DNA of 49,370 nucleotides from Minisyncoccota bacterium (GTDB taxonomy: Bacteria > Patescibacteriota > Minisyncoccia > UBA6257 > JAAZHW01). Positions within the stretch are counted from its first letter, which is position 1, and every line of letters starts with the position of its first letter. The stretch spans positions 1-49,370 of the forward strand of contig DAONDV010000002.1 of the NCBI GenBank assembly GCA_035402745.1. Reading direction: 5' to 3'. Positions 3,065-11,511 of the stretch are shown one piece after another. Both the position numbers and the translations under genes were made by a program. A model generated the notes under the pieces. The model was given only the letters and a program-made list of their open reading frames with translations, was not told where the DNA came from and did no database searches.

Positions 3065-3640
3065 TTACTTTACTAATTTATTTATCAATTTATTAACCAA
3101 CCACGCAGAAACAATACCAATGATTGCTCCGCCAACTATATCTAAAGGATAATGTACACCGCAAAACACTCTAGCCACTCCCATTATTGCGCTACCGATA
3201 AAAAACAACCAACCCAATTTACGATTGTAACAATAAACCACCATAGATAAAGCGAAAAACAAAGTCATGTGTCCGGAAGGAAAAGAGCCACTATCGGAAT
3301 GATTAATTAAAGCAACAATATCATGGCTCATAAACGGCCTTGAACGATGATAAAAATGCCTAATTGTTTCCGTGACCACTAAACGACTTAATACCAAAGA
3401 AGAAAACAAGAAAATAAAAATCTTTTTCGCTCCATGCCAAAAATTAGCCAATGTTTCAGTGACTTTTTTGATATGCCATAATTCCCACAACAACCAAATA
3501 GCTGCCATAAAAACTAGAATATACCCCAATGTATCAGCCAAGAAAAATCCAAGCTTATCCAAAAACTCGCTTTTTCCTGCCCAATCATTAATACTTTTGA
3601 AAACTGTATAATCAATATTTGATAACATATTCAATATCAT
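3065..3640 (-). CDS. PAP2 family phosphatase (undecaprenyl-diphosphatase-like)
   Basis: Acid phosphatase motifs: RSRPF, PSGH, and SR-like ARVFCGVHYPLD. Several TM helices. Confidence 0.8.
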   Translation of the reverse strand: MILNMLSNIDYTVFKSINDWAGKSEFLDKLGFFLADTLGYILVFMAAIWLLWELWHIKKVTETLANFWHGAKKIFIFLFSSLVLSRLVVTETIRHFYHRSRPFMSHDIVALINHSDSGSFPSGHMTLFFALSMVVYCYNRKLGWLFFIGSAIMGVARVFCGVHYPLDIVGGAIIGIVSAWLVNKLINKLVK

Positions 3641-3727: not shown

Positions 3728-3765
3728 CCCTACGGATAACTTACTATCGTAAGTTATCCGTAGGG
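3728..3765. repeat. Hairpin palindrome copy 1 (CCCTACGGATAACTTAC-TATC-GTAAGTTATCCGTAGGG)
   Basis: Perfect 17-bp arms, 4-nt loop. Same core as the copies at 4377 and 8267, in inverted orientation (loop TATC is the complement of GATA). Confidence 0.95.
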
Positions 3766-4365: not shown

Positions 4366-4376
4366 TTTTCAGACTC

Positions 4377-4408
4377 TACGGATAACTTACAATAGTAAGT
4401 TATCCGTA
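4377..4408. repeat. Hairpin palindrome copy 2 (TACGGATAACTTAC-AATA-GTAAGTTATCCGTA)
   Basis: Perfect 14-bp arms. Lies between the stop of the 1039-aa gene (4443) and the start of the PaaX-like gene (4365). Confidence 0.95.
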
Positions 4409-4442
4409 TGATCCTTATAATTGATATCTATTTTTGTTATTT

Positions 4443-8247: not shown

Positions 8248-8266
8248 GTATCACTAGTCACATTTT

Positions 8267-8302
8267 CATACGGATAACTTACGATAGTAAGTTATCCGTA
8301 TG
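8267..8302. repeat. Hairpin palindrome copy 3 (CATACGGATAACTTAC-GATA-GTAAGTTATCCGTATG)
   Basis: Perfect 16-bp arms, 4-nt loop. Confidence 0.95.
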
Positions 8303-8340
8303 ATTTCCGTTTTATATCAATATAGTAAAAAAATAAAAAA

Positions 8341-8590
8341 GCGGAGGGTGAAACCCGCCTACGCACGAAACTTCTGCCTTTGCTAAAGCTTCGGCAGACA
8401 AGTCGGCGGGCAGGAATTCTCAATCACGATAAGGCGGTGGGTATAGGACTTGAACCTATACGCCCCTTTTACGGGGCTCTGCTTTTCGAGAGCAGCGCCT
8501 TACCATTCGGCACAACCCACCATTTTTGACCCCTAACGCCACTTCCGCCCAAGGCGGATCAGTCCTTTGACTGACTGGCAACCCTCCGTT
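8341..8590 (-). ncRNA. GC-rich structured leader and trailer enclosing tRNA-Ser(CGA) (putative single primary transcript)
   Basis: The 5' CGGAGGGU (8588-8581) is the exact complement of the 3' ACCCUCCG (8349-8342). Internal hairpins at 8559-8574, 8545-8557 and nested 8354-8410. Flanked by a promoter and a U-tract. Confidence 0.4.
8435..8521 (-). tRNA. tRNA-Ser (anticodon CGA), class II with long variable arm, no encoded CCA
   Basis: Manual cloverleaf: acceptor GGUGGGU/ACCCACC, anticodon stem CUGCU/AGCAG with loop CU-CGA-AA, variable arm CCCC-GUAAAA-GGGG, T arm AUAGG-UUCAAGU-CCUAU, discriminator G. Confidence 0.9.
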
Positions 8591-8596
8591 TATACT

Positions 8597-8625
8597 ATAT
8601 TACATTTCGAAAAGAATTTTGGCAA
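8597..8625 (-). promoter_or_regulatory. Sigma70-like promoter of the tRNA-Ser(CGA) unit
   Basis: Minus strand TTGCCA-17 nt-TAATAT. The predicted start at about 8590 coincides with the first base of the closing helix. Confidence 0.5.
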
Positions 8626-8661
8626 ACAAAAAATCGCTTCGACGATTTCGTCGAAGCGATT
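8625..8661 (-). terminator. Intrinsic terminator after the beta-CASP gene
   Basis: AATCGCTTCGACGA / TCGTCGAAGCGATT perfect palindrome followed by U6 on the minus strand. Confidence 0.7.
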
Positions 8662-8672
8662 AAAATCATTTC

Positions 8673-10061
8673 TTAATTAGAATCGTCTAATTCAATAATA
8701 GAATCATGATCCGGACTTTCGGTCAATAAACCGAATAAATCACGTATCTTGCTAGATAAGACCTCCCGCGCTTCTGGATCGCCATGAACCACAAAAACCT
8801 TTTTCAAAGTAAAACGCATAGGCTTAATCCACCCCAAAAGCATAGATTGATCGGCATGCGCTGAATAAGCTGATATTTCCTTCACTTTAGCATTTACCGA
8901 AACTTTCTCTCCATAAATATTAACAACCTTTTCTCCATCTACAAGCTTGCGACCCAATGTTCCTGCCATTTGATAACCCACTATTAATAGTATGTTATTG
9001 GGATCGGGTAAATAATTTTTTTCATGATGCAAGATTCTCCCTCCCTGCGAAGAACCAGAACCGGCCATAACTAATTTCGGCGGTAATACCGTAGCAATGG
9101 CTTTGGATTCCTCCGAAGACATAGTAAATTTTAACCCAGGAAAATCAAAGAAATTATCGGAAGCATTACTTACAGACTTAAACGCATCCAAACGGAAATA
9201 AGTAAGATATTTTTGATAAACCTCCGTAAGCTTAATAGCCAAAGGACTATCTATAAAAATAGGAATTTGTTGAATTCGTTTATTCTCCACTAGCTCATTC
9301 AATTCAAATAACAACTCCTGCGTTCTTTCCATAGCAAAAGTCGGAATCATCAAAACTCCCTTATTCATAACCGCCTCTTCTATAGTATCCTCCAAAAGAT
9401 TTTTTCTTTGGTCTAAATTTTCATGCAAACGATTTCCATAAGTTGATTCCACAAAACAATAATCTCCCTCAGAAAGTTCTTCCATCTCCGGTAATAATTG
9501 ATTTTGCGGATTACCCAAATCTCCGGAGAAAATAACTCTGATTTCTTTTTTGGGCGATGTTTTTATTTTTAAAAGAATAATACAAGAACCCAGTACGTGC
9601 CCGGCATTATAAAAAGCAAAGGAAAATTTTGGAGAGATTTCAACTTCTTTATGATATTCAACGGTTTCCCACAGACTCATAGATTTATCAATATCAGCCG
9701 CGGAGTAAAGTTCTTCCTCTCTATTTTTTTCAGCATCATCAGCCAAGAGGCCCTGTGTGTCTCTCAACATCAAATCGGCAAAATCTTTAGTAGGAGGAGT
9801 GGAATAAATTTTTTTAGAAAAACCTCTTTTAGCAAGAAGGGGCAAACGACCAGTATGGTCGATATGCGAATGAGTGATCAAAACAGCTTTTAAATCCGCA
9901 GGATCAAATCTAAATTTGTCATAATTTAATTTTTCGTATTCTTTTCCTTGATAAAGTCCGCAATCAATCAAAATCTGATCGCCCCCGCAATCAACAAGAT
10001 AGCTAGAAGCGCCTACGCCTTTACTTTCGCTCAAACAATATATTTTAGTTTTTGATGCCAT
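8673..10061 (-). CDS. MBL-fold metallo-hydrolase with beta-CASP / RNA-specificity domain (RNase J/CPSF-like nuclease)
   Basis: HSHIDHTGRLP (HxHxDH). Downstream D and H motifs (ESTYG.., AYSAHADQ) are typical of beta-CASP. Confidence 0.8.
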   Translation of the reverse strand: MASKTKIYCLSESKGVGASSYLVDCGGDQILIDCGLYQGKEYEKLNYDKFRFDPADLKAVLITHSHIDHTGRLPLLAKRGFSKKIYSTPPTKDFADLMLRDTQGLLADDAEKNREEELYSAADIDKSMSLWETVEYHKEVEISPKFSFAFYNAGHVLGSCIILLKIKTSPKKEIRVIFSGDLGNPQNQLLPEMEELSEGDYCFVESTYGNRLHENLDQRKNLLEDTIEEAVMNKGVLMIPTFAMERTQELLFELNELVENKRIQQIPIFIDSPLAIKLTEVYQKYLTYFRLDAFKSVSNASDNFFDFPGLKFTMSSEESKAIATVLPPKLVMAGSGSSQGGRILHHEKNYLPDPNNILLIVGYQMAGTLGRKLVDGEKVVNIYGEKVSVNAKVKEISAYSAHADQSMLLGWIKPMRFTLKKVFVVHGDPEAREVLSSKIRDLFGLLTESPDHDSIIELDDSN

Positions 10062-11421: not shown

Positions 11422-11511
11422 GGAGGCGTGCCTGAGTGGTTGAAAGGGCCAGTCTTGAAAACTGGTATATCAGAAATGGTATCAGAGGTTCGAATCCTCT
11501 CGCCTCCGCCA
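11422..11511 (+). tRNA. tRNA-Ser (anticodon TGA), long variable arm, CCA encoded
   Basis: Acceptor GGAGGCG/CGCCUCC, anticodon stem CCAGU/ACUGG with loop CU-UGA-AA, T arm AGAGG-UUCGAAU-CCUCU, G73-CCA. Confidence 0.9.

Follow-up and report, generated by a model that had tools for sequence, protein, structure and literature searches.

The 49,370-nt stretch analysed here (the window; contig DAONDV010000002.1, assembly GCA_035402745.1) comes from a Minisyncoccota bacterium and carries, on its minus strand between positions 8625 and 8327, a tRNA-Ser(CGA) transcription unit with GC-rich flanks. We consider it probable that this unit is an evolutionary scar, in which the interior of an old tRNA-Ser(CGA) gene has been replaced by a foreign tRNA-Ser(CGA) with GC-rich flanks. 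A reading made from the letters of the window alone (the sequence-only reading) had taken the leader and trailer for functional RNA.

Remains of an Older tRNA-Ser(CGA) Gene

Upstream of the unit on the same strand lies a gene for a beta-CASP/MBL RNA-metabolising hydrolase (8673–10061), and the loci used for comparison were fetched via close homologues of this MBL gene. The homologues came from metagenome bins of Patescibacteria (candidate phyla radiation, CPR) named Minisyncoccia, Paceibacterota and similar, and the samples with the region were activated sludge, wastewater, landfill and groundwater. When the genome collection was scanned with the MBL protein, L034 was the one close relative to emerge, synteny being absent from the 79 other loci.

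In six related contigs, L004, L005, L034, L152 and L153 among them, the MBL gene is followed directly by an intact 88-nt tRNA-Ser(CGA) gene of sequence GGAGGGTTGCCAG-AGTGGTCGAATGGGCCGCACTCGAAATGCGGTGGGGGAG(T/C)AATCTCCTCGAAAGTTCGAATC-TTTCACCCTCCGC, with acceptor strands GGAGGGU/ACCCUCC. The outgroups L006 and L008 likewise have tRNA-Ser(CGA) directly after the MBL gene, and the intact gene is the ancestral state of the locus. Two segments of the window, 8587–8575 (GGAGGGTTGCCAG) and 8353–8341 (UUUCACCCUCCGC), are identical to the first and last 13 nt of this old tRNA as found in L004, L005, L034, L152, and L153, and are homologous to them. The 5′ relic corresponds to positions 1–13 of the displaced gene (the 5′ strand of the acceptor stem, U8-G9 and the start of the D arm), and the 3′ relic to its last 13 nt (the end of the T stem, the 3′ strand of the acceptor stem and the discriminator G, plus a C). 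GGAGGGTTGCCAG occurs only once in the window. The gene order of L034 is that of the window (MBL gene, tRNA, a 189-aa gene), with the intact tRNA in place of the 255-nt unit. Downstream of the intact tRNA of L153 stands CCCTCCGC-TTTTTTATTTATT, just as at window positions 8348–8327.

The surviving 13 + 13 nt hold both strands of the old acceptor stem, which is why the transcript ends are complementary. The complement consists of CGGAGGGT (8588–8581) and ACCCTCCG (8349–8342), the latter followed by a C at 8341 and a T6-A-T7 run at 8340–8327. Because perfect leader/trailer complements of at least 8 nt were found in 43 of 71 tRNA loci compared, the length of the terminal complement is not significant by itself. 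What makes it real is its agreement, letter for letter, with the orthologous tRNA of the relatives at both ends.

The unit is preceded by a σ70-type promoter, TTGCCA-17-TAATAT (8625–8597), which matched at 9 of 12 positions in a promoter scan, and AAAC stands directly before the 5′ relic, between the promoter and 8587. Promoter-like matches of such quality are common in the window (7 found, 4.2 expected), but this one is conserved in relatives. The arrangement TTTGTTTGC(C/T)AAAAT...TAA(T/G)AT is found upstream of all the composite alleles (those with a second tRNA between the relics) and also of the intact tRNA genes of the relatives. By this comparison, both the promoter and the T-run are inherited from the old tRNA-Ser(CGA) gene. 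The two 13-nt segments combine sequence identity at a syntenic site with a common promoter and T-run context and with relaxed constraint, as is expected of relics. Leaders and trailers of the composite type are absent from the six contigs with the intact tRNA.

The term relic applies to no more than the 13 nt at each end. To the eye, AGTGGT resembles the D loop, TCAAAAAT the anticodon loop, and GAGAATCC/CGAAGTT the variable and T arms of the old tRNA. Local alignments of leader and trailer to the old tRNA interior did not exceed those of shuffled sequences, with the exception of the L001 leader (p = 0.03, uncorrected). We considered that the flanks might be decayed old-tRNA interior left by an insertion near the anticodon loop, as in the L018 locus described below, and did not adopt this possibility, the alignments being no better than those of shuffles. 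Removal of the inner tRNA leaves a recognisable outer tRNA in L018 and L020 only and not in the window.

As a minor point of annotation, the old-type tRNAs of L004 (2720–2807) and L153 (2041–2128) were called by ARAGORN and missing from a scan of eight loci at the Rfam gathering threshold. The near-identical tRNA of L005 scored 54.7 bits in Rfam, and the two misses are probably due to filter loss in the larger search.

The Inner tRNA

The inner tRNA-Ser(CGA) occupies 8521–8435, with acceptor strands GGUGGGU/ACCCACC and a discriminator G. It was identified by ARAGORN and by Rfam (RF00005, 54.9 bits against a gathering score of 29), and it has the cloverleaf, long variable arm, CGA anticodon and G73 discriminator of a class II tRNA-Ser. 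It is only 59% identical to the old tRNA-Ser(CGA) and 90% identical to the free-standing tRNA-Ser(CGA) of L011, a groundwater contig of 52% GC in which the tRNA has no surrounding shell. The D arm, UGCC-GAAUGGUAA-GGCG, has an architecture unlike that of the old gene and unlike that of the tRNA-Ser(UGA) of the window.

Across the six composite alleles the T stem takes the forms UAUAGG/CCUAUA, UGCAGG/CCUGCA and UGUAGG/CCUACA, all of which pair, and the variable arm has one compensatory pair. These compensatory changes show the inner gene to be under tRNA-type selection. The inner tRNA does not encode CCA, and neither do the old-type tRNA-Ser(CGA) genes of five closer relatives; the window tRNA-Ser(UGA) gene (11422–11511, plus strand) encodes a 3′ CCA. 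With CCA encoded by the UGA gene and not by the CGA gene, both kinds of 3′ end occur in the genome of the window.

Metatranscriptome contigs of low depth (2–5) from related variants, in runs labelled RNA-Seq, hold the tRNA co-transcribed with 8–16 nt of leader and 25–40 nt of trailer; of the flanks they cover the tRNA-proximal part only.

Organization, Composition, and Folding of the Unit

All the features listed by the sequence-only reading (the promoter, complementary ends, T-run, hairpins, tRNA and trailer hairpin) are present where it had placed them on the minus strand. The whole unit is about 255 nt long, and the relics sit 67 and 80 nt from the inner tRNA. No open reading frame (ORF) of at least 50 aa overlaps it. 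After the 5′ relic come two leader hairpins supported by sequence and predicted fold, UCAGUC-AAAG-GACUGA (hairpin 1, 8574–8559) and UCCGCC-UUG-GGCGGA (hairpin 2, 8558–8544). The proximal leader is a 22-nt spacer (8543–8522) made up of AGUGGCGUUAGGGG (8543–8530) followed by UCAAAAAU. In the minimum free energy structure AGUGGCGUUAGGGG is predicted to pair with the proximal trailer CCUUAUCGUGAUU (8434–8422), forming a tRNA-flanking helix. A spacer of 24 nt separates the 3′ end of the inner tRNA from the trailer hairpin (8410–8354), which in sequence and fold has a base stem CCCGCC/GGCGGG and a 29-nt apical extension at 8402–8374. The 3′ relic and the T6-A-T7 run (8340–8327), a likely termination signal, complete the unit.

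A terminator scan listed, by pattern match only, a local hairpin AGGCGGG-TTTCACCC-TCCGCTT followed by TTTTATTTTT. Written as RNA, AGGCGGG-UUUCACCC-UCCGCUU has the form of an intrinsic terminator, a GC-rich hairpin directly before a U-run, and the 3′ relic may at the same time be the descending arm of this hairpin.

The GC content is 57% in the leader and 55% in the trailer, compared with 35% in the window. Equally GC-rich 70-nt windows occur elsewhere in the stretch, mostly in tRNA genes or coding DNA. The predicted fold of the whole unit is very stable (z = −5.3), mostly owing to the tRNA. For the leader alone z was −1.5, with 17 of 200 shuffles folding equally well, and for the trailer alone it was −2.35 (4 of 200 shuffles). 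Membership of the leader or trailer in a known RNA family was considered and rejected: a scan of the unit with Rfam 15, at the gathering score and at E values up to 10, gave only the tRNA, the other matches being at chance level and below their gathering scores.

Variation of the Flanks among Composite Alleles

When metagenomes were scanned for the D arm, six different composite alleles came to light: those of the window, L015, L024, L002/L003/L027, L012, and L001. The six fall in about three lineages, so few that covariation among them is suggestive at most. In the 8-bp closing helix formed by the transcript ends no pair covaries. The 3′ relic of L015 (CACCCCCCGC) introduces an A·C mismatch into this helix, that of L024 has an A-to-G change giving a U·G pair, and in L012 and L001 the 3′ strand is absent, with no CCTCC within 600 nt downstream. 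A stem of the RNase III type would be a long, conserved and covarying flank duplex; the one seen here has 8 bp and no covarying pair, and two of the six alleles have lost it. These observations do not support a function of the closing helix.

The other structures behave differently from one another. Hairpin 1 is found in the window, L015, L024, L003, and L012, with a C·A mismatch in L003 and L012; it is absent from L001 and shows no compensatory change. Hairpin 2 has one compensatory pair and one broken pair in L012, and its place in L001 is taken by CCCGCC-AGU-GGGCGG. The trailer hairpin is missing in L012, and only the window and L015 have its 29-nt apical extension. At its base this hairpin has the stem CCCGCC/GGCGGG in the window, UCAGCC/GGCUGA in L024 and CUAGCC/GGC(CU)UAG in L001, three pairs being changed on both sides. 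In the tRNA-flanking helix (8543–8530/8434–8422) two pairs are changed on both sides between clade A and L003/L012. Compensatory changes are seen in the trailer base stem (three pairs), the tRNA-flanking helix (two) and hairpin 2 (one), and none in the closing helix. On this sequence comparison some local structures of the flanks look constrained.

In the local terminator hairpin, AGGCGGG-UUUCACCC-(U>C)CCGCUU, the L015 change that disrupts the closing helix converts a G·U into a G-C pair. Since the change improves a local hairpin directly before the U-run, it is a hint that the 3′ relic is kept for termination and not for the closing helix. Local hairpins may matter, most plausibly for termination or 3′-end formation.

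Of the earlier description, the single transcription unit is supported, a tRNA-Ser(CGA) with a promoter that is conserved, GC-rich flanks that have structure, and a T-run; the part that took the end-to-end helix and flanks for a functional platform or a new small RNA finds no support.

Composite and Intact Alleles in Natural Populations

The locus is polymorphic. The composite allele is found in independent assemblies (L001, L002/L003/L027, L012, L015, L024, and Logan contigs). All members of one group with MBL proteins 95–100% identical (window, L015, L001, L024) are composite. L002 (composite) and L004 (intact), which come from the same metagenome, have MBL proteins 96% identical, and the intact L034 and L152 are close to both; L012 (composite) and L005 (intact) have MBL proteins 85% identical. 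L153 and the outgroups carry the intact allele. With composite and intact alleles mixed at 96% and 85% MBL identity, the MBL tree does not account for which allele is carried.

The 43 nt upstream of the tRNA do track the allele. In this segment L003 equals L012 save for one shifted base in an A/T run, and L034 equals L005 at 43 of 43 positions, although the MBL proteins of these two pairs are only 74–76% identical. As far as these sequences go, the pattern fits a single origin of the composite allele followed by homologous recombination of the whole locus among co-occurring relatives. Repeated insertion of a cassette fits less well, since the promoter haplotype of the resident should then persist.

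The DNA downstream of the tRNA is variable, with a block of small ORFs in L002, L004, L005, and L012 and a different gene in L001. The block lies at 3480–5386 in L002, 2810–4270 in L004, 4595–5295 in L005 and 12170–12400 in L012, and its ORFs have 48–135 aa. Some of them begin MKK..KK..LY.WKC..CG, which has a zinc-ribbon-like look, and they match no Pfam or PHROG entry. The window lacks the block; in the relatives that have it, it stands directly after the tRNA, whichever the allele, and behind a conserved hairpin CAACGGCTCAG...CTGAGCCGTTG.

Two intact alleles, L004 (2628–2705) and L152 (1557–1634), have an insert of about 62 nt with an inverted repeat TCCTCCGAAGTTT...AAACGAAGGAGGA that divides the tRNA promoter in two and brings a new −35 box with it. 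CCGAAGTTT is common to this insert and to the loop of the trailer hairpin of the composite alleles.

A tRNA Gene Nested in Another tRNA Gene

In L018 (12550–12258, minus strand), and identically in L020, a complete tRNA-Ser(CGA) (12503–12416) lies within the anticodon loop of another tRNA-Ser. The two are independent assemblies from another lineage of Patescibacteria, and the nested tRNA was also found in mangrove and marsh runs. The inner tRNA is bounded by an 11-bp inverted repeat, CCCCGCACCAA/TTGGTGCGGGG, and is present in a single copy. The outer class II tRNA-Ser, GGAGGGTTGGCAG...CCTGCACCCTCCG, with acceptor strands GGAGGGU/ACCCUCC, is otherwise complete and is recognised by ARAGORN once the insert is removed. 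No known intron family, group I intron or other Rfam family was detected in the insert, and no empty-site allele was found in other runs or in relatives reached via the neighbouring protease gene. L018 and L020 show that one tRNA-Ser gene can harbour another, a tRNA-Ser(CGA), and the window may represent a late stage of what L018, by analogy, shows early. A tRNA-Ser(UGA) follows 2 nt after the nested unit of L018, and in a mangrove relative G18 of the outer D loop is changed to A.

Relatives of L018 with proteases 81–86% identical to its own carry very different, uninterrupted tRNA-Ser(CGA) genes: L154 (2206–2291), L158 (2198–2279), and L163 (1177–1263), with acceptors GGAGGAG, GGAGGGC, and GGCGGGG among this set. 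Those of L154 and L158 hold the position of the L018 gene in an Arg-Ala-Ser cluster; in L155, where the protease is identical, the Ser gene is missing at that place. These observations point to rapid turnover of the tRNA-Ser(CGA) gene among the relatives of L018, and replacement of tRNA-Ser(CGA), sometimes nested, seems to recur in the phylum.

Origin of the Composite Gene

The ancestor would have had an ordinary 88-nt tRNA-Ser(CGA) gene with its own promoter and T-run, directly downstream of the beta-CASP/MBL gene. In one lineage, positions 14 to about 75 of this gene would have been replaced by about 220 nt of GC-rich DNA carrying a different tRNA-Ser(CGA), probably acquired horizontally. 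We infer from the sequence that transcription of the resulting 255-nt unit would start at the old promoter, near 8590. RNase P would cleave the transcript at 8521/8522, and 3′ to the discriminator G (8435) the cut would be made by an endonuclease, for example RNase Z. CCA would be added after cleavage, because the inner tRNA encodes none. Termination would take place at the old T-run, aided by the trailer hairpin, by the local hairpin that uses the 3′ relic, or by both, and the leader and trailer would be discarded as by-products. Composite and intact alleles both persist among close relatives and would be exchanged as whole loci by homologous recombination.

The replacement of an old gene by foreign DNA is supported by the GC contrast, with flanks of 55–57% in a genome of 35% and the same type of tRNA in a contig of 52% (L011). 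A number of observations weigh against it. Scans of the metagenome, the loci and the viral contigs yielded no donor locus that shares the leader and trailer hairpins, and for this reason the foreign origin of the flanks is something that we only infer. Neither a recombinase nor a target-site duplication nor a second copy was found in the neighbouring ORFs, the window and about 150 loci. The compensatory changes (three in the trailer base, two in the tRNA-flanking helix, one in hairpin 2) suggest that the flanks are not pure junk. The leader hairpins are the same at 30 of 31 nt in clades A and B, which is above the level of the nearby promoter spacer and could reflect either function or recent exchange. 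Moreover, the distinct composite alleles number only six.

An alternative is a functional RNA, with leader, trailer and closing helix forming a processing platform like the RNase III stems of rRNA, or yielding regulatory spacer RNAs with the tRNA as a scaffold. We regard such a function as quite unlikely. The very stable fold of the unit (z = −5.3), the compensatory changes just listed, the near identity of hairpins 1 and 2 between clades A and B, and the transcription of the tRNA-proximal flank sequence seen in the metatranscriptome contigs speak for it. The closing helix, however, has only 8 bp, a length that is common by chance, and descent from the acceptor stem explains it; none of its pairs covaries, L015 has a mismatch in it, and L001 and L012 have lost it. 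The six contigs with the intact gene do without leader or trailer, the leader alone is not more stable than shuffled sequences, no Rfam family was found, and pairing in palindromes can also be maintained by arm-to-arm correction at the DNA level, without any function of the RNA. A mobile cassette without ORFs, MITE-like (miniature inverted-repeat transposable element) or of a homing type, could instead bring its own tRNA-Ser(CGA), invade the resident gene, kill it and take its place, the window being an old, decayed insertion. The presence of the same junctions in three MBL clades that also hold intact alleles, the independent nested case of L018/L020 with its 11-bp inverted repeat (CCCCGCACCAA/TTGGTGCGGGG), and the strong differences between tRNA-Ser(CGA) genes at orthologous sites among close relatives of L018 agree with such a cassette. 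It is nevertheless an unlikely source of the window allele, which lacks the terminal inverted repeats, target duplication and multiple copies of a transposable element: the window junctions have neither repeats nor duplication, and no second leader/trailer copy was found in the window, in about 150 other loci or in viral contigs. No transposase lies nearby, and recombinase, integrase and endonuclease domains were not found by Pfam and PHROGs in the neighbouring and allele-variable ORFs. The composites carry a promoter haplotype of their own and not that of the intact allele of the same clade, which fits a single origin with exchange, and no empty-site allele was seen for L018. The wider proposal that tRNA-Ser(CGA) genes of Patescibacteria are repeatedly overwritten from inside by hairpin-bounded, ORF-less cassettes with a foreign tRNA-Ser(CGA), L018 being fresh and the window old, is speculative, and we give it a small chance of being right. 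If it were, a self-propagating tRNA-replacement element of this kind would make the host dependent on the incoming copy.

It is very unlikely that the relics are attachment-site (att) scars of an integrase-driven island that used tRNA-Ser(CGA) and brought a replacement tRNA. The variable DNA downstream of the tRNA (the small-ORF block in L002, L004, L005, and L012, the different gene in L001) would suit such an island, and integrating elements are known to leave tRNA fragments beside replacement tRNAs, as in Caldiarchaeum (PMC3293823). On the other hand, the relics flank the new tRNA on both sides, no further away than 67 and 80 nt, and do not repeat its sequence, and no integrase or recombinase domain is encoded in the neighbouring ORFs. 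The small-ORF block accompanies intact and composite alleles alike, and a search for the direct repeat of the tRNA 3′ part that an island would leave found CACCCTCCG only once per locus. A chimeric assembly from two strains whose tRNA-Ser(CGA) genes differ is scarcely credible; both types of tRNA do co-occur in one metagenome (L002, L004), but the same junctions, in several diverged versions, are present in JGI, ENA, and Logan assemblies from different samples.

A phage origin of the unit was also considered and rejected. A blastn search against phages gave no match, and scans of viral contigs for the D arm and hairpin 1 gave none. The trailer motif had 38 matches in viral contigs, none of them beside a tRNA 3′ end, and these are attributed to chance.

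Comparison with Known Systems

The flanks of 16S and 23S rRNA form processing stems that are cut by RNase III. The window unit resembles them in having complementary 5′ and 3′ flanks that close the precursor of a stable RNA; its helix differs in being only 8 bp long, unconserved, without covariation, lost in two alleles and derived from an acceptor stem. Regulatory RNAs are also known from tRNA external spacers, such as 3′ETS-leuZ of Escherichia coli. Like it, the spacers described here are co-transcribed with a tRNA, and spacers of the window type are absent from the six related contigs with the intact gene. Group I introns interrupt some bacterial tRNA genes in the anticodon loop. The interruption in L018 is in the same loop, but the interrupting sequence is itself a complete tRNA gene, and in the window the body of the host tRNA is gone, so that splicing could not restore it. 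GC-rich palindromic mini-elements occur in AT-rich genomes, as with the GC clusters of yeast mitochondria and the palindromic elements of Rickettsia. The resemblance lies in GC-rich hairpin inserts in an AT-rich background whose presence varies (hairpin 1, the 29-nt extension, the 62-nt promoter insert of L004/L152); the difference is that no repeated family matching the window hairpins was found in the window or the compared loci.

The closest parallel is offered by the att-site duplications of islands that target tRNA genes and by the tRNA-Thr locus of Caldiarchaeum, where a tRNA fragment beside a working gene stems from the integration of an element and is heterogeneous in the population (Sugahara et al. 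2012, PMC3293823). There as here, a fragment of an old tRNA lies beside a working isoacceptor, the locus is polymorphic in natural populations and the adjoining DNA is variable. In the window, by contrast, the fragments lie on both sides and enclose the new gene in one transcription unit, the insert has only about 220 nt and no recombinase, and neither fragment is a copy of part of the working tRNA. The host, moreover, is bacterial (Patescibacteria) and not archaeal, without bulge-helix-bulge (BHB) introns. A full-text search of the literature turned up no case of one tRNA gene described as nested within another, an absence that is weak evidence.

The event as such is a disruption and replacement of a tRNA gene, which is of an already known kind. 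The locus documents the in-place swap of an essential single-copy tRNA gene for a divergent isoacceptor that reuses the old promoter and terminator, in natural populations where both alleles then circulate among close relatives by recombination. It also holds a warning for annotation, in that a stable, GC-rich transcript paired end to end around a tRNA need not be a new RNA; here it was comparison with relatives that revealed the carcass of the previous tRNA gene. Taken together with L018, it raises the question whether tRNA-Ser(CGA) is a preferred target of nested replacement in reduced genomes, and by what mechanism.

Dispersed Palindromes in the Window

An intergenic 38-nt perfect palindrome, C(A/C/T)TACGGATAACTTAC-GATA-GTAAGTTATCCGTA(T/G)G, occurs three times in the window, at 8266–8303, 4375–4410, and 3729–3764. 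Its copy number in metagenome contigs is very high, with a word depth of about 1400 compared with about 29 for the flanks, and it looks like a dispersed repeat resembling a bidirectional terminator.

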